The notes under the pieces are model-generated. The model did not search any database. It was given only the letters and a program-made list of their open reading frames with translations, and was not told the DNA's origin. Of a DNA stretch of 35,894 nucleotides, positions 14,544 to 21,160 are shown piece after piece. This DNA comes from an uncultured bacterium (lineage in GTDB: Bacteria > Myxococcota_A > UBA796 > CAJQPC01): contig CAWVYO010000003.1 of NCBI GenBank assembly GCA_963934385.1, positions 1 through 35,894 of the forward strand. The letters run 5' to 3'. How positions within the stretch are numbered: position 1 is the stretch's first letter; every line of letters starts with the position of its first letter. A program made the position numbers and the translations under genes.

Positions 14544-14582
14544 TTTGGCCTCTTTACTCTTTTGGCCTCTTTACTCTTTTGG
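14544..14582. repeat. 17-bp tandem duplication (2.3 copies) spanning the cyclase stop codon
   Basis: tttggcctctttactct at 14544-14560 and 14561-14577, followed by a partial tttgg. Confidence 0.9.
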
Positions 14583-16103
14583 GCTCATAAGTCGAACGAT
14601 AGATGTACCCATTACTACAATATCGCCGTCTTTAGCGGGAGCGGTTCCCTCGACTTTCTCGAGTTCGTTGCCGTTTTGAAGTAACCAAGTGATACAACGA
14701 TCGTGAATTGACTGAATTTCCCATGAGCCATCGTGAGCGACCGTGACAGCGGCCTGTCTCCGTCCAGCTAGTGCCCTGTCCATAGTGAAACCGCCCTGGC
14801 GCGCTTTGCTTGCTTTCTGTCCAGAGCACCACCTAACGTTCGCGTGACCCCGCCTATCTGGTAGGGCGAGCCCTGGATGAGCGGGATCTCGACCAATCTC
14901 AGCAGTACTTCCGTTGGCTATGCCGACCATTAAGGATGGTGCCGACATCAGCAGTCCGGCGTATTGTCCCGACACTGGTATGAATTTGATCGTCCCGGAT
15001 GGTGGGACTATGTTGGACTGCTCTTCTAGAGCGACTGTATCGCCCTGAGCCATTATCCGTCCGTTCAATTCTATCCCCTTTGAGAGAGCAGTGATTGCGA
15101 CGCCTGATACATTGACTTTTACCCGCAACACCGCACTGTCAGATTCGTTGCTCCAGGCTCCGTCAGGTAGCAGATCGTAGGAGTAACTGTCGACCACGTT
15201 AGCCATGGGCGCGACAGGTAGCGCAAGTCCACCCAACATCATCTGCAAGGAGGCGGTCTCTCCGAGGTCAAAGATGATGGTGTGGCTATCGTCACAGGCG
15301 GTCACCTCGTTAGCCACAAGCTCTATGGCATTGCGAATGGCATTGGGAGCCCCGACAACTAATCCTCTGCCGCTGTCTTGCCATTCGTGCCTATCAAGAG
15401 GAGATATGTTGTAAACTGCTAGCCAGATGTGGCTCTGCTCTAGAACAGGTAGGGACGATATCAACCTCTCTAAAGCATCTGAGTTAGGTGTGTAATCCAT
15501 GAGTAGAATAGTTGGATTTGGGGGGAGCGTAGTTAGAGTCGCTCCTCTCTCCATTACAGTCAAACGCCCTTGCTTAACAGCCGCCTTTATGGGCTCAGGC
15601 AGGGCACACTTCGAAGGAATAACGGCTCTAAAGACAGGCATTTTTCCAGGAAAGCCCTTCATCTCAAAAGAGCCCGTGCACTCCCAGGCAACCTCTGACT
15701 GGTTCATACAGTATTTTGTGCTTTCCGAGAACCAAAATTCGGCAGACGGGGTCTTGGCTATTACTCGTGCTGCTAAATTGACGGCGTCCCCAAAGGCGTC
15801 TCCGTCTATCTCTTCTACATCTCCCGTAGCGCATGCTGCCCGAATCAGGAGCCCTCCAGCTCTTTGTCCCTGTTCTACTGCGTCCACTCCTGCTCGGATT
15901 GCATCAGTGGCGGAAGTAAACAGAGCCATGTACGAGTCGCCGAGATTTTTTACCACTCGACCACCGTGCCGAGTGAGCACAGCCAAGGTGAACCTCTCGT
16001 GTTCAGCTATAAGCTTACGCAACTCACTCCTGTCAGATCTACCAACAGTTTGAGTATAGTTCGCCAAGTCGGTAAATAAGACCGTTCGTGTAACTGTGGA
16101 CAA
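14571..16103 (-). CDS. Class III adenylate cyclase with C-terminal FHA-like region
   Basis: VLFTD and VVKNLGD (metal Asp residues, adenine-specifying Lys) and DAFGDAVNLAAR (Asp, Asn, Arg). C-terminal EIGRD...GRRQA...DGDIVVMG. TTG start preceded by AGGAGG. Confidence 0.82.
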   Translation of the reverse strand: MSTVTRTVLFTDLANYTQTVGRSDRSELRKLIAEHERFTLAVLTRHGGRVVKNLGDSYMALFTSATDAIRAGVDAVEQGQRAGGLLIRAACATGDVEEIDGDAFGDAVNLAARVIAKTPSAEFWFSESTKYCMNQSEVAWECTGSFEMKGFPGKMPVFRAVIPSKCALPEPIKAAVKQGRLTVMERGATLTTLPPNPTILLMDYTPNSDALERLISSLPVLEQSHIWLAVYNISPLDRHEWQDSGRGLVVGAPNAIRNAIELVANEVTACDDSHTIIFDLGETASLQMMLGGLALPVAPMANVVDSYSYDLLPDGAWSNESDSAVLRVKVNVSGVAITALSKGIELNGRIMAQGDTVALEEQSNIVPPSGTIKFIPVSGQYAGLLMSAPSLMVGIANGSTAEIGRDPAHPGLALPDRRGHANVRWCSGQKASKARQGGFTMDRALAGRRQAAVTVAHDGSWEIQSIHDRCITWLLQNGNELEKVEGTAPAKDGDIVVMGTSIVRLMSPKE

Positions 16104-16188
16104 GTCGCCTCCTGCAGCGAATTCACTATATCAGGTTGGTTGGCTTCTGTGGTCAGAATGCTGGGGGAATATCTACTTCGGCAAAATT

Positions 16189-16218
16189 TCCTGCTAACCA
16201 ACCATCGTGTTAGCAGGA
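16189..16218. promoter_or_regulatory. Perfect inverted repeat (10-bp arms, 10-bp spacer) in the divergent cyclase/gltX intergenic region; candidate operator or hairpin
   Basis: TCCTGCTAAC-caaccatcgt-GTTAGCAGGA. No U-tract follows, and it lies between two gene starts. Confidence 0.55.
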
Positions 16219-16258
16219 GCGCGTAATCATAAAATAGAACAATTATTCGGATGAAAGA

Positions 16259-17884
16259 ATGACAATAAGATGCCGATTTGCACCGTCACCTACAGGACAA
16301 TTGCACGTGGGGGGAGCACGCACAGCACTTTTTAATCTGCTTTACGTTAGGAATAAAGGCGGCAAAATGGTTCTCCGTCTAGAGGACACCGATGTTGCTC
16401 GTTCTTCCAAAGAGTCAGAGGAAGCTATTTGTTCTGACCTTCAGTGGCTGGGGCTCGACTGGGATGAGGGTCCGAATGTTGGGGGTCCTGGTGCGCCATA
16501 CCGCCAGTCCCAACGCCTGGGGCTCTATCGCGAAAACGTAGATGCGTTGTTGAAATCTGGTGGAGCCTACTACGCTTGGGAATCCAGTGATGAGCTGAAC
16601 GCAATGCGAGAGGCTGCTCAAGGTAGCGTGCAAGGGTTCAGGTACAGTCGTCAGGAATACAGTGACGAACAGCTTGCCCAATATAGAGATGAGGGGCGAA
16701 CACCGGTCGTTAGATGCTCTGCATCTCCTGGGGACATTGTGTTTGTAGACGAGGTTCTTGGAGAGATTACCATTCCCGCCAGCGACTTAGACGACTTCAT
16801 TATACTTAAGGGCGATGGTTATCCGACCTACCATATGGCGGTAGTTGTTGACGACCATCATATGGGAGTCACACACGTTCTTCGTGCTCAGGAGCACCTA
16901 AAAAATACAGCCAGACATCTTAGGATCTACGATCTTCTGGGCTGGGAGCCCCCTAAGCACGGACACATGCCACTGATCTTCTCCATGGAGGGCGGCAAGA
17001 TGTCTAAGCGCGACAAGGCAAAGGTCGCCCGTGCCGCGGCGCGTGCAAATGGTCACAACCCGGAGAGCCTAGCTTTATTGACAGGGCTCCCAGAAGATCT
17101 ACTCGTGCGGTTTATGAAAAAGAAAGATCATGGGATAGACACTGCTGTCGCTATCGCCAACAAATTGGGTGTCGAGCTTCCAGAGATAGATGTTCGCGAT
17201 TTCAGAGAGTCTGGGTACCTACCTGAGGCTCTGGTGAACTTCCTCTCACTTTTGGGTTGGAGCCCTGGTGGCGATCGCGAAATTATGGGGTGGCAGGAGA
17301 CAGTTGACGCGTTCAGCTTGGACAGAATTGTTAAGACAGCCGCTAAGTTTGATCGAGAGAAATTACGCTGGCTAAACGGTGTAAAGCTTCGCGAATTGAG
17401 TGTTGATGAGCTCATAGAAAGAGTTGTAAATTACGTTGAGCAGTGGGGTGGAAACCTCAAGGGCGTAGATGTTTCCATAGTGGGTCCGCTGATATCTTTA
17501 TATCGAGAGCGAGGTCAAACTCTTCGCGAGTTAGATGACGCTGTGGCTTGGGTGTTCACTGCTCCCACTGAGTACGGACCCGCAAAGGCTATAAAGAAGC
17601 ACATCCTAAAGGGTGACTCTCTCGAGCGGTTAAGTAAGATCGGCGCCATTTTGGGATCACTGTCCGAATGGAGTGAGGTGTCAGTTGAGACAGCGCTAAC
17701 GGCGTTCACGGAGAATGAGTGTGAAGGAAAGATGGGAAAGGTGGCCCAACCCGTGCGAATAGCACTTACGGGCAGTCCGGTCTCTCCTTCAATATATCCA
17801 ACTATAGTCAGCCTTTCACAGGCTGAGGTCGTTGGAAGGATCAGCGCGTGTGTTCAGTATTTTACCGACAGCTCGCATAACTGA
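16259..17884 (+). CDS. gltX: Glutamate--tRNA ligase with ~55-aa insertion after KMSKR
   Basis: RFAPSPTG, HVGG (HIGH), RLEDTD, YRQSQR, PTYHMAVVVDD, KMSKR, GYLPEAL, LLGWS, and the anticodon domain ending in RIALTG..SP. Confidence 0.95.
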   Translation: MTIRCRFAPSPTGQLHVGGARTALFNLLYVRNKGGKMVLRLEDTDVARSSKESEEAICSDLQWLGLDWDEGPNVGGPGAPYRQSQRLGLYRENVDALLKSGGAYYAWESSDELNAMREAAQGSVQGFRYSRQEYSDEQLAQYRDEGRTPVVRCSASPGDIVFVDEVLGEITIPASDLDDFIILKGDGYPTYHMAVVVDDHHMGVTHVLRAQEHLKNTARHLRIYDLLGWEPPKHGHMPLIFSMEGGKMSKRDKAKVARAAARANGHNPESLALLTGLPEDLLVRFMKKKDHGIDTAVAIANKLGVELPEIDVRDFRESGYLPEALVNFLSLLGWSPGGDREIMGWQETVDAFSLDRIVKTAAKFDREKLRWLNGVKLRELSVDELIERVVNYVEQWGGNLKGVDVSIVGPLISLYRERGQTLRELDDAVAWVFTAPTEYGPAKAIKKHILKGDSLERLSKIGAILGSLSEWSEVSVETALTAFTENECEGKMGKVAQPVRIALTGSPVSPSIYPTIVSLSQAEVVGRISACVQYFTDSSHN

Positions 17885-18391
17885 TTCGTCTGACTCTATC
17901 GTGCTGACATCCTCAAGAGGTACCCACTTGGCGTCTACAGCGTCCGTGTCCGCAGCGATCTCTAGAGAGTCAGACACCAGGAGAATCCTGAGGTCAAAGT
18001 GGCTATGATCTGGATCTCCTTTACGTGCCGGGATCGTGTGAATATCTAGATCAAACAGCCCGTCTCCGACAACGGTACCGCCAGCGACACCTGTCTCCTC
18101 TAAGAGTTCTCGCATTGCGGCTGCAATGACGTCCGTATCAGATGACTCAATATGTCCTCCTGGTTGCAGCCAACGGTGCAATTTGGAGTGGAATATCATC
18201 AGGAGACTGCTCTGGTCGGGTGAGAGCACGAATGCGCTCGCTGTGAAGTGTCCTGGGGAGAAATGTTCACGAGAAAACGGCGTTTTACTTTCGCGTAGTA
18301 GATCCTCCATTCTGCTTTTATATAGCTCCTCCCTTCTGTCGTTTGCACTGTATTGGCGGAGTAGGTCTTGGAGATGAGTTCGCTTTGTCAT
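17816..18391 (-). CDS. NUDIX hydrolase
   Basis: GHFTASAFV, HSKLHRWLQPGGH and Nudix box GGHIE...AAMRELLEETG. Its 3' end overlaps gltX by 69 bp. Confidence 0.9.
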   Translation of the reverse strand: MTKRTHLQDLLRQYSANDRREELYKSRMEDLLRESKTPFSREHFSPGHFTASAFVLSPDQSSLLMIFHSKLHRWLQPGGHIESSDTDVIAAAMRELLEETGVAGGTVVGDGLFDLDIHTIPARKGDPDHSHFDLRILLVSDSLEIAADTDAVDAKWVPLEDVSTIESDESVMRAVGKILNTRADPSNDLSL

Positions 18392-18529: not shown

Positions 18530-21160
18530 GTGGGTGAATTAGGCACAAAGCGAATGCCTGTGAGAAAACTCTCGGCAATGAATGTTTTAGCTTGGTGCTT
18601 TTCCATTATGTGCTTCTTGTTCATGGGTGGCGCCATAGTGGGCTATGGCACATCTCCCAGCACAACATCTGTATCTCCCAATCCAACTACTCTTTTGTCT
18701 GTCACCGTTGAGGGTGGAGATCCGTCAGAAGTTGTCGCACTAAAAATACCTCTCTTGATAAGTGAGCGGACGCTGCCCACCGACAGTACGATTACCTATT
18801 CAATCGCCGTTGATGTTCAAGATGTCGAGTCTATAAGACACCCAGCAGTCTTATTGGAGCGACCTTTGCACATGGCTTCGGTGACATGGGATGGTATAGA
18901 TGTTCCTCTCTTTTCATCACACGGTGGTGATCGACTAGATGGAGAAGGAACCCTCTTGGGGCGACTCCCGGTCATCTCTGAATCCGCTGTTGACTCCCAT
19001 CTGTTAACGGTAACTTTGACCGGGGCACACGGTTACTTGGGGGTTGCCAATGCTGTCAGTGTGGGAGAGTTTGCCGAGCTAGAGCGCTGGCAGCAATTCA
19101 GAGAGTTTAGGCTGGAGTTTGGGGCGACGGTGTTGTCGGTCACAGGGGTGGTTTTACTACTCATAGGTCTCTTTAGTAAGACTAGGGGGGAGTTTGTAGC
19201 AGCTGGGCTCTTCAGCTTGTTGATGGGGCTAACGATCTGTACTTTTGCAGATGTGTGGTCGGTCATGCCAGGGGGCTTGGAGTACAGACTGAGGATAAGA
19301 CATGCCGCAATAGGGCTAAGCCCGTTTTTTGGAATTACTGCGCTGATGTTTATTGTTCAGGAGCGCCAAGGGCAGTTCGTGTTGTTTGTTGGGGTGGCAT
19401 CATTCGCCATAGCGACAGTCGCTATGGGGTGGCCAGACTCCACAATACTCCCGTATGTGCGACTTCTTGAGCAATTGACAGCTGTTGCGACCTTGATTTA
19501 TGGCATAGCAAAGTCTTTCAAGCACAGTTTACAAGGTGTATTCGAGGCTAGAATAGTACTGGCTGTCGTCTTGGCTCTTATGGGTGTGTGGCTGTTGTCT
19601 CAGGTGCGGTACGGTATGGTTGGGGACGGTAGTCTCTTGGTGTTAGTTTTTGTCGCTGTTTGTGTCTCTATGATGATCCTCCTGATTAGGAGGTATCTCA
19701 CGTCATCCGAGCGTTACGCACAATTTGTATCAGAGGCTTTTGATGCGATAATTGTAGTAGATTCCAGCGGTATCGTTGTAGAGTCGAACGCTAGCGGTCG
19801 TTTACTGCTTGGAGGTTGGCTGGAGTGGCAAGAAGGCACTATATGCCTTTTTGAAAAAATTGAGCCGCTGGATATAGAGCTATGTCGCAAGCATGTGGCG
19901 AACAGATCCGGTGAAATTGCTGAGTTGAGGTTTCCCATTCGCCGTGGTGCAGGGGGACCAGAGCGTACAGTGCACGTTGATAGCGTATCTGTCGCCTTAG
20001 AGAATAATCTAGCCCTGCTAGTACTGCGGGACGTGACCCAGAGGAGGCAGATAGAGGGACGCATCATCTCATCCGTTAGGATGGAGACGCTTGGGATTGT
20101 CGCAAGGGGAATAGCTCACGATTACAACAACACTCTTTCGGCTGTATTGGGACAGTTGACCATGTTGGAGCACGAGGTGGAAGCGGTTGACTCGGATCTT
20201 GTACATAGAATCGAGAGATTGATCGTTGAGACATCAGAGCGTACAAGGAGGCAGTTGGCGATAGTTCGCGGTGGGAACGAGCCAAGCCGTTCTGTTGATC
20301 CAATTGACTTAGTGGAGAGTATAAGTCAGCTGGTAACTGGAACGTTGCCTGACAATGTCTTCCTTAAACAAAGTTTCGGAGAAGATCTACCCTCTGTTCA
20401 CTGTAAGGCGGTAGAAATTGAGCAGGTATTGTTGAGCCTCGTCACTAACGCTCGAGATGCGTTGGCTGATCAAGGCAGAGGGCAGATCGAGATTAGAGCA
20501 GAAAAGGCAGCTGGTGATTTCGTTGTGTTCTCTGTAACAGATGACGGTCCAGTTATTCCAAAAGAACACGCGTACATGGTTTGGAGCCCTTTCTTTTCAT
20601 CTGCAGGGAGAGATCTAGGAGCAGGGCTTGCCATGTCGGTTGTCCAGCGCGTAGTGAGGGAGCACGGTGGAAGCGTGAGTTTTGTTACGCCCATGAGCGG
20701 AGTCGGGGCCAGGTTTGAGGTTTTTATTCCCACTTCTGAAGCCACTGCACACTCAGAGCCTACTGTGGCAAGCACAAAGCTTGGACATGTGCTGGTTGTA
20801 GAGGATGAGCCTAATATAAGGGAGGTTATGGTTTCAATATTGCGTCTAAGAGGATTCACTGTGGCGCAGGCAGAGTCGTCGGAGATTGCCAGAGAGAATT
20901 ACAATCCGAAGGACTTTCAGTTGTTAGTTACAGATGTAATTATGGGTTCTGAAAACGGAATAAGTCTGGCCAAGAACTTTACGAAGATAAACCCAAGGCT
21001 TGCAGTTCTGGTCGTCAGTGGGCGGGTCCCAGAAAAACTGAGTGCATCTGACACATGGGCTTTTTTGGATAAGCCGTTTACTCCAGATATGTTGGTGGCA
21101 TCTGCTCGCAAGGCGATCCTGTTGTCCAAAGTCACTCCTGGTGAGCCTGTGTATGAGTAA
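18530..21160 (+). CDS. Membrane hybrid sensor histidine kinase (extracytoplasmic beta domain, ~7TM, PAS, HisKA, degenerate HATPase, receiver)
   Basis: AGGAG RBS then GTG. H-box IAHDYNN (His codon 20117-20119), N-box SLVTNARDA, G1 DDGPVI, G2 GAGLAM, and receiver VEDE/VTD/SG/KPF. Confidence 0.88.
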   Translation: MGELGTKRMPVRKLSAMNVLAWCFSIMCFLFMGGAIVGYGTSPSTTSVSPNPTTLLSVTVEGGDPSEVVALKIPLLISERTLPTDSTITYSIAVDVQDVESIRHPAVLLERPLHMASVTWDGIDVPLFSSHGGDRLDGEGTLLGRLPVISESAVDSHLLTVTLTGAHGYLGVANAVSVGEFAELERWQQFREFRLEFGATVLSVTGVVLLLIGLFSKTRGEFVAAGLFSLLMGLTICTFADVWSVMPGGLEYRLRIRHAAIGLSPFFGITALMFIVQERQGQFVLFVGVASFAIATVAMGWPDSTILPYVRLLEQLTAVATLIYGIAKSFKHSLQGVFEARIVLAVVLALMGVWLLSQVRYGMVGDGSLLVLVFVAVCVSMMILLIRRYLTSSERYAQFVSEAFDAIIVVDSSGIVVESNASGRLLLGGWLEWQEGTICLFEKIEPLDIELCRKHVANRSGEIAELRFPIRRGAGGPERTVHVDSVSVALENNLALLVLRDVTQRRQIEGRIISSVRMETLGIVARGIAHDYNNTLSAVLGQLTMLEHEVEAVDSDLVHRIERLIVETSERTRRQLAIVRGGNEPSRSVDPIDLVESISQLVTGTLPDNVFLKQSFGEDLPSVHCKAVEIEQVLLSLVTNARDALADQGRGQIEIRAEKAAGDFVVFSVTDDGPVIPKEHAYMVWSPFFSSAGRDLGAGLAMSVVQRVVREHGGSVSFVTPMSGVGARFEVFIPTSEATAHSEPTVASTKLGHVLVVEDEPNIREVMVSILRLRGFTVAQAESSEIARENYNPKDFQLLVTDVIMGSENGISLAKNFTKINPRLAVLVVSGRVPEKLSASDTWAFLDKPFTPDMLVASARKAILLSKVTPGEPVYE

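Follow-up and report, generated by a model that had tools for sequence, protein, structure and literature searches.

Aminoacyl-tRNA synthetases are known to acquire extra domains, and the nucleic-acid surface of a synthetase can be used outside aminoacylation, as in the autorepression of Escherichia coli AlaRS and the DNA binding of Thermus PheRS. Glutamyl-tRNA synthetase (GluRS) needs tRNA to activate glutamate, and in the Thermus GluRS-tRNAGlu complex the KMSKS loop closes over ATP by the acceptor end, with the following stem-contact fold lying along the inside of the tRNA L. The gltX gene described here lies in a 35,894-nt stretch of contig CAWVYO010000003.1 from an uncultured bacterium of the lineage Myxococcota_A (the window, i.e., the whole stretch of DNA that was analysed), and it encodes a GluRS in which a helix-turn-helix (HTH) domain of the XRE/Cro type follows directly on the KMSKR motif. 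This is a real and conserved GluRS variant of single origin, its extra domain is derived from the HTH_3 family, and it serves its hosts as their sole GluRS. To our knowledge, no transcription-factor fold has been reported inside the catalytic domain of a synthetase, directly after the KMSKS loop of a sole GluRS. Full-text literature searches found no description of an HTH or any other domain after the KMSKS motif of GluRS; within the excerpts of PMC3927822, on the evolution of bacterial GlxRS, there is no mention of an insertion, insert or indel, and within those of PMC5388404 none of HTH or helix-turn-helix. Although no printed account was found, databases do register the domain in a few members (PF01381 in the homologue P0122).

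The whole gltX product is matched by TIGR00464 gltX_bact (444.3 bits against a cut-off of 289.95 in the NCBIfam scan), and it also matches PF00749 in two stretches (E 1.7e-90), PF19269, the GluRS anticodon-binding domain (E 3.7e-24), and solved GluRS at E 1e-92 to 1e-94 (phmmer). A first-pass annotation, made from the sequence alone, had counted 58 residues after KMSKR where a typical GluRS has about three, and both the translation and the alignments with solved GluRS confirmed the count. In the gltX frame the insert reads DKAKVARAAARANGHNPESLALLTGLPEDLLVRFMKKKDHGIDTAVAIANKLGVELPE, identical to the residues quoted in that annotation, and together with K247-R251 and I310 it makes up a domain of ~64 residues. 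The alignment with 7k86 splits in two (phmmer; query 1-254 on chain 9-252 and query 310-532 on chain 253-469), and a matching break occurs at query 254/310 for 5h4v and 254/312 for 2o5r. About 55-56 residues of the insert are thus unmatched in solved GluRS, where the canonical link is three residues (KLSKR-TGA-ADVMQY in 7k86). Measured from KxSKR to GYLPEA, the spacing is 67 residues here; in insert-less GluRS, read at 12 other loci, it is 12, and in the Bacteroidota-type enzyme 29. The same in-frame insert, at a spacing of 61-113, was present in 115 of the 121 stored homologues of at least 300 aa (the motif patterns used gave no match in the remaining six), and it recurs in 24 of 41 related genomes, so that it is the product neither of chance nor of an assembly error. 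In the source genome (3.4 Mb in 338 contigs, 90% complete), a search with PF00749 returned this gltX and one GlnRS and nothing else, making it the sole GluRS found, and each insert-bearing relative has one match to A2, a profile of the insert and its flanks. By its sequence, the insert-bearing gltX would be the housekeeping GluRS of the organism, with glutamylation activity predicted. Three homologues of planctomycete type (P0094, P0117 and P0096; columns 380-450 of alignment A1) have an extra 20-45 residues between helix 1 and helix 2 of the domain, a sign that the site goes on accepting sequence.

An AlphaFold2 model of the full-length protein, made from a 39-sequence alignment, had a mean predicted local distance difference test score (pLDDT) of 94.1 and a predicted template modelling (TM) score of 0.89, and the ten-residue blocks of positions 251-310 scored between 92 and 97. 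The four helices assigned to the insert in that model (Table 1) were unchanged when residues 247-336 were folded alone from 27 sequences, at a pLDDT of 83-87. Foldseek searches of the isolated domain against the PDB gave no match at E <= 0.001, and the best was the HipB chain 4pu4_D (E 6.4e-3, TM 0.54/0.61, 68 columns); nearly all of the matches listed were HTH domains of the XRE type, the exceptions being HTH-like domains inside enzymes and the ribosome-bound EDF1. Independently of Foldseek, VIA-align, run over 48,161 representative chains, placed the HTH of HicB3 first (Z 8.8, rmsd 2.1, 64 aligned), followed at Z 6.0-7.8 by XRE regulators, C proteins, the 434 and lambda repressors, SinR and HipB. 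Its matches span residues 1-64 of the model, i.e., K247 to I310, and those to XRE HTH domains align 56-71 residues at an rmsd of 2.0-4.6, although small helical models commonly reach a Z of 6-9 (the tool's own warning is for Z below 8). For that reason the fold was not called from Z alone, and since the Foldseek and VIA scores are modest, the call rests on the uniformity of the match list together with the Pfam and hhalign results given below. On the model, the insert is supported as an XRE/Cro-type HTH domain. The folding and Foldseek comparison proposed at the outset accordingly returned a confident fold and, among the matches listed, overwhelmingly XRE/Cro-type HTH domains. An ESM Atlas search with residues 250-312 was uninformative, its matches all being tRNA-synt_1c clusters that scored no higher than 0.85.

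The descent of the domain is written in its relatives more legibly than in the window itself. The window's own 58 residues have no Pfam or NCBIfam match, even at E 10, whereas three homologous inserts exceed the HTH_3 (PF01381) gathering score of 23: P0122 at 29.0 bits, L008 from a Pirellulales metagenome-assembled genome (MAG) at 29.4, and L015 from a Sedimentisphaerales MAG at 25.0. The Pfam scan proposed in the first-pass annotation was, in that sense, negative for the window's insert and positive for those three. The match of P0122 places its residues 255-310 on positions 1-55 of the 55 in the profile, and the protein has a precomputed PF01381 label in the protein collection. Within alignment A1, HTH_3 matches at E <= 1 occur in three of the 39 members, and three to four match HTH_3, HTH_26, HTH_31 or Xre-like-HTH at that threshold. 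Searches with the A2 profile returned, after matches to the GluRS flanks, 3bs3, the 434 repressor and HipB, weakly (E 0.3-2) and in the same register. Against four HTH_3 domains of the same genome, hhalign aligned A2 over 43 columns in the expected register, pairing NPESLALLTGLPEDLLVRF... of the insert with GWSQKRLCEEAGVSKRFLIQL... and helix 2 with the s..LA...G part of those domains, at a probability of 76.7% (E 2.1e-5), which is below 90%; against 12 HipB-like proteins the probability was 79.1%. The XRE/Cro pattern originally aligned by eye was, by these comparisons, right, and they support a descent of the domain from Pfam HTH_3. What they appear to have caught is an XRE domain in the course of being repurposed, with early-branching members that still pass HTH_3 and a clade, that of the window, which has sunk below every threshold and kept the fold.

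The 24 related genomes with the full insert are 21 of the 22 in family f1, which includes the window's genome, and three of the four in family f3. Partial matches to A2 were found in nine of the 41, and no match in eight; eight of the partial matches are to the downstream GluRS flank only, i.e., insert-less GluRS, and the other (G029) covers profile positions 1-21 only. In an even sample of the window's phylum the insert was found in 37 of 301 genomes, restricted to families f1, f3, f36 and f23, and in the planctomycete phylum (that of a Pirellulales MAG) full-length matches were found in ten of 201 genomes and flank-only matches in 14. Named contigs with the full insert come from Phycisphaerae, Pirellulales, Isosphaeraceae, Sedimentisphaerales and Tepidisphaeraceae MAGs, and the proteins closest to the window's GluRS are from MAGs labelled at source as Myxococcota or 'Deltaproteobacteria'. 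Among 1.84 billion cluster representatives, A2 matched 756 proteins at E <= 0.001, 105 of them at E <= 1e-10; the less significant matches are to the flank only, and many are fragments. Both counts are lower bounds, because the profile draws chiefly on the window's clade and on Phycisphaerae. Some partial matches, from Actinomycetota and Gemmatimonadaceae, were set aside, since on reading the proteins they proved to be ordinary insert-less GluRS with a spacing of 12.

A tree of 54 GluRS was computed from the columns outside the insert (IQ-TREE quick search, LG+G4, Shimodaira-Hasegawa-like approximate likelihood ratio test (SH-aLRT) support only, midpoint root). It excludes ten redundant relatives (L090, L092, L095, L097, L099, L101, L103, L104, L105 and L107), four loci in which the motif filter found no complete open reading frame (ORF) (L011, L028, L032 and L041) and unsampled genome-contig loci, and five of its rows have a deviant amino-acid composition. 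All 30 insert-bearing GluRS fall on one side of a single branch (SH-aLRT 99), so that one change of insert state suffices, against a mean of 18.0 changes after shuffling. The insert-less GluRS of families f2, f4, f6 and f7 of the same order form a separate, well-supported group, one f5 and one f6 genome are placed apart from it, with insert-less and Bacteroidota-type enzymes, families f36 and f23 are nested among Phycisphaerales sequences, and no loss of the domain was found among the sampled members of the insert clade. We read this pattern as a single insertion, followed by at least two gene transfers between phyla, in either direction, that replaced the resident gltX. On this reading a foreign allele has taken the place of an essential translation gene across phyla. 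The order also contains a GluRS of Bacteroidota type with a spacing of 29 (L113, from the f6 genome G037), which clusters with Parabacteroides (SH-aLRT 90, inside a clade supported at 99) and is either another foreign gltX allele or contamination, the genome being 88% complete with 3% contamination.

The residues that are conserved across 109 distinct insert segments indicate what has been kept of the HTH and what has been given up. In the KMSKR motif itself four residues (K247, M248, K250 and R251) never vary, and the fifth, S249, is kept in 96% of the segments. The constraint continues without a break into helix 1, which has R251, K255, R258 and R262 on one side and A254, A257 and A261 on its packing side: R251 is conserved in 100% of the segments, D252, K253 and A254 in 99%, K255 in 94%, A257 in 96% and R258 in 98%, and position 262 is K or R in 83%. 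The basic loop that precedes helix 4 is followed by D291 (87%), and where the chain returns to the canonical fold L307 (98%), P308 (100%), I310 (97%), V312 (97%), D314 (100%), F315 (94%) and R316 (95%) have hardly changed. By contrast, helix 3, which stands where XRE proteins have their recognition helix, is conserved at L282 (98% hydrophobic) and F285 (98%) alone, and positions 278-281 are acidic in 53, 38, 52 and 43% of the segments and basic in 0-6%; position 267, just before helix 2, is acidic in 56%. Polar or basic DNA-contact residues at the starts of helices 2 and 3 are absent as a pattern across the 109 segments. In the hhalign comparison, PEDL of helix 3 stands against SKRF of a genuine HTH_3 domain of the same genome, and this replacement of S-K-R by P-E-D, with the variability of the columns, indicates that the DNA-reading face has turned negative and is free to vary. 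These frequencies point to strong constraint on a basic stripe continuous with the catalytic KMSKR and on the basic loop, and the conserved recognition helix that a reader of DNA would be expected to have was not borne out.

The first-pass annotation had gone further, and supposed that the HTH could make GluRS a moonlighting transcription factor, which would bind DNA (e.g., the inverted repeat upstream of gltX) and couple charging status to gltX expression. The proposal was not without grounds: fold and descent both mark the domain as a true XRE-type HTH, the gltX start codon is preceded, at a distance of 41 nt, by a perfect 10-bp inverted repeat, the autorepression of E. coli AlaRS is a precedent, and the basic loop after helix 3 (K287-K289) sits at the position of the backbone-contacting K/R residues of the 434 repressor. 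The starts of the helices, however, are acidic rather than basic at positions 267 and 278-281, as described above, the window's insert fails every Pfam HTH model, and both ends of the domain are tethered in an enzyme that is a monomer, while most XRE proteins bind their palindromes in dimeric form. Nor has the repeat been kept. Searches of the 220 nt upstream of gltX at 20 loci, for arms no shorter than 8 bp with a spacer no longer than 25 nt, found a repeat at the window's own locus only, and none at the 19 of 19 related insert-bearing gltX genes. The sole further copy in the genome, with two mismatches, lies inside a 781-aa ORF, i.e., in a coding region. As RNA the repeat would form a hairpin, in a 93-nt region whose z of -1.9 against shuffles is unremarkable, and no sigma-70-like promoter was found in 15950-16350. 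The repeat is probably specific to this genome and no part of the insert feature, and as an operator it was rejected. While DNA binding through another surface is still conceivable, we consider a transcription factor in GluRS to be quite improbable; of the first-pass annotation, then, the XRE/Cro-like HTH after KMSKR stood and its autoregulation by DNA binding was not supported.

The fold of the insert also brings to mind partner proteins, as HTH domains dock them in RodZ-MreB, SinR-SinI and HipB-HipA, and the domain could be a protein-protein interaction module, which in the boldest version would shield or decoy HipA-type kinases. The top Foldseek matches are HipB antitoxins, and S249, 96% conserved, stands two residues before helix 1 and is a serine of the type that HipA targets in the KMSKS-type motif of GluRS. 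The search for HipA was prompted by the HipB matches at the head of the Foldseek list and by the action of HipA kinases on GluRS, which they phosphorylate according to the abstract of PMC10627512. HipA_C kinases are indeed encoded in 21 of the 41 related genomes, but none was found in the window's genome (90% complete), and they occur in 12 of the 26 genomes of insert-bearing families as against nine of the 15 of insert-less ones. An upstream HTH_3 (hipB-like) gene is present at 12 of the 14 hipA loci scanned in relatives, i.e., at nine of ten from insert-bearing families and three of four from insert-less families, with one further locus lacking a candidate ORF, so that these kinases have a HipB of their own. 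The hhalign probability for HipB proteins (79.1%) is no better than that for unrelated XRE domains (76.7%), and no conserved neighbouring partner gene was identified. As hipA is absent here, is not enriched with the insert and has its own hipB, and as the hhalign scores are alike, there appears to be no special tie to HipB, and the HipA/HipB link survives as an improbable reading only. A docking role of any kind we regard as unlikely. The version in which a HipB-like fold, fused two residues past Ser249, is a gatekeeper of the KMSKS loop that blocks or decoys HipA-type kinases is a very long shot. Were it true, the sole GluRS would have built-in immunity to a class of toxin encoded in about half of the related genomes, which could also account for the displacement of an ordinary gltX allele by this one through horizontal transfer. 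More broadly, if the domain bound DNA or a kinase, the charging of tRNAGlu, on which translation and the synthesis of tetrapyrroles draw, would be coupled to regulation or to immunity against toxins, an outcome that the evidence does not favour.

We prefer the explanation that the HTH was recruited as a module acting in cis on the tRNA backbone or the KMSKS loop, to which we assign a probability of roughly 0.55. Under this explanation an XRE/Cro-type HTH (HTH_3) would have been inserted once, directly after KMSKR, at the junction of the Rossmann fold and the stem-contact fold, and the insert-bearing gltX would then have spread horizontally between Planctomycetota and the window's phylum. The domain would have kept its fold and lost the features of a DNA-reading head, with selection maintaining the helix-1 stripe (R251, K253, K255, R258 and R262), the K287-K289 loop and the LPEIDV junction. 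It would act on the enzyme's own reaction and not as a transcription factor, gripping the phosphate backbone of the acceptor or D arm of the tRNA as an extra clamp, or moving with the KMSKS loop as a rigid lid, or both; its basic surface is hinged at the loop that, in the Thermus complex, closes beside the acceptor end. The extra tRNA-contacting domain that the first-pass annotation had kept as its fallback would fit better than a DNA regulator, as the basic residues are conserved. Uses of the fold other than DNA binding are represented among the matches by EDF1/MBF1 on the ribosome, the enzyme domains of HEPD and MPnS, and RodZ. Since GluRS needs tRNA for activation and the basic domain hinges on the loop that closes over ATP, the variant may amount to a natural experiment in the coupling of tRNA binding to catalysis.

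Several points weigh against this explanation. The basic stripe is placed along the path of the tRNA by analogy with GluRS-tRNA structures, canonical GluRS works without the domain, to which the insert may add little, and the fold scores include no Foldseek match at E <= 0.001 and a VIA Z of only 6-9. Nor does any change in tRNAGlu, in the acceptor stem or discriminator, track the insert in a comparison of 30 related loci. The single tRNAGlu(UUC) of the window's genome shows U11-A24, U13-G22 and a variable loop of four bases. An acceptor of GACCCC(A/U) with A73 is found in most of the insert-bearing f1 and f3 genomes sampled and also in the only genome sampled of each of the insert-less families f4, f5 and f6, and family f2 has GAUCCCA with G73; because acceptor stem and discriminator are alike in insert-bearing and insert-less families, a matched change in the tRNA has no support. 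GlnRS is likewise present in all seven families of the order, and thus in both groups, so that the insert shows no link to Glu/Gln discrimination.

The same observations suit a tolerated passenger, i.e., a fragment of an HTH gene that entered a surface loop able to accommodate it, has stayed there as a folded bulge of no functional effect, and was carried along by a successful gltX allele. The canonical enzyme does without such a domain, the insert is tracked neither by tRNAGlu nor by the presence of GlnRS, and insert length varies (spacing 61-113), with further long insertions in some members. A neutral bulge, however, would hardly keep D252, K253, K255, R258, the K288 region, D291 and the LPEIDV junction as nearly invariant surface residues, across a deep clade whose members are 40-60% identical overall and of which no sampled member has lost the domain. 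We consider the passenger possible but doubtful, and the constraint on these residues speaks for the cis-acting module.

Certain features of tRNAGlu and GlnRS may be recorded for their own sake. The tRNAGlu(UUC) gene at C202:3180-3256 of G000 (L126) has C1-G72 and the acceptor CACCCUA, with a tRNALys gene 6 nt upstream. C1-G72 recurs in the tRNAGlu of L129 (G007) and L144 (G040), and the other 27 related genes read have G1-C72. All of the tRNAGlu genes read have A2-U71, where E. coli tRNAGlu has U2-A71. The GlnRS of the genome is split over contig ends, at C251:4392-5063 (locus L002, 1426-2097) and C186:3-1649 (L003), which looks like an assembly break and not a broken gene; it carries a long C-terminal tail similar to YqeY/GatB, and P0001 is a weak match to NF011291, 'glutamine--tRNA ligase/YqeY domain fusion'.

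Table 1. Positions in the window of gltX, of its motifs and inserted domain, and of the upstream inverted repeat.
Feature	Position	Strand	Basis or remark
Perfect 10-bp inverted repeat, TCCTGCTAAC-N10-GTTAGCAGGA	16189..16218	.	Ends 41 nt before ATG
gltX, glutamate--tRNA ligase, 541 aa	16259..17884	+	TIGR00464, PF00749, PF19269
HIGH-type motif HVGG, residues 16-19	16304..16315	+	Translation; H16, G18 and G19 at least 90% conserved in alignment A1
KMSKR motif, residues 247-251	16997..17011	+	Translation and conservation
Helix 1, residues 251-263	17009..17047	+	DSSP on model; basic stripe R251/K255/R258/R262 plus K253
Insert, residues 252-309, between KMSKR and I310	17012..17185	+	Without counterpart in solved GluRS; XRE-type HTH fold in model
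Helix 2, residues 268-275	17060..17083	+	DSSP on model; conserved: core L271, A272 and turn G276 only
Helix 3, residues 279-286, XRE recognition-helix position	17093..17116	+	DSSP on model; start acidic, variable
Basic loop K287-K288-K289 between helices 3 and 4	17117..17125	+	K/R in 60%, 86%, 72%
Helix 4, residues 293-303	17135..17167	+	DSSP on model; hydrophobic core positions conserved
Junction LPEIDVxDFR, residues 307-316, back into canonical GluRS fold	17177..17206	+	Near invariant

A NUDIX hydrolase gene (17816-18391, minus strand; PF00293, E 2e-13) is convergent with gltX, and its 3' end covers the final 69 nt of that gene (the stops are at 17884 for gltX and 17816 for the NUDIX gene). 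Upstream of gltX a divergent gene (14571-16103, minus strand) encodes 510 aa, of which residues 7-66 match PF00211, covering no more than the first third of the catalytic domain of an adenylate/guanylate cyclase; the remaining ~440 residues have no Pfam match at E <= 0.001. At 18530-21160 on the plus strand there is a hybrid sensor kinase of 876 aa with HATPase_c and receiver domains, whose long N-terminal part has, judged from sequence, a membrane-embedded look.

Set against the described systems, the protein is closest to the canonical bacterial GluRS (Thermus thermophilus 1j09/1n78; also 7k86 and 5h4v), with which it shares the order of HIGH, KMSKS-type motif, stem-contact region and PF19269; in the solved alignments inspected, that enzyme is without the separate domain, of ~56 residues and four helices, that lies here between KMSKR and the helix (F/Y)R..GYLPEAL. 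The Bacteroidota-type GluRS, seen at three Bacteroidota loci and in a single genome of the window's order, also has an insertion at this site, with a spacing of 29 and not 12, but of only ~17 extra residues with no HTH, and in a separate clade (SH-aLRT 99), from which it follows that the site tolerates insertions and that the two were independent. With the XRE/Cro-C1 HTH_3 domains (434 repressor, HipB, C proteins and SinR) the insert shares the fold, the helix order and the core LA...G, L..F and A..IA..L; it differs in being embedded in an enzyme and tethered at both ends, with acidic or variable residues at the DNA-reading positions and an unusually basic helix 1. HipB antitoxin heads the Foldseek list, while VIA-align ranks the HicB3 HTH first and hhalign gives 79.1% as against 76.7%, and HipB is encoded beside a hipA kinase gene, whereas no HipA_C was found in the window's genome. 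MBF1/EDF1 has the same fold among the matches (7o81_AU, 6zvh_i, 1x57, 2jvl and 9p73_CH), sits on the ribosome and contacts RNA rather than DNA, but it is a free-standing eukaryotic and archaeal factor and not an enzyme insertion, and its likeness to the insert is one of fold. HEPD, MPnS and HppE (3rzz, 6b9r, 6b9s and 1zz6) use an XRE-like helical domain as a structural part of an enzyme, though their chemistry is unrelated and the domain belongs to the subunit architecture, not to an insertion beside a catalytic loop. AlaRS and PheRS, finally, are other enzymes with other folds, and for the insert-bearing gltX the conserved operator was not found (one of 20 loci) and the DNA-reading face is degraded.

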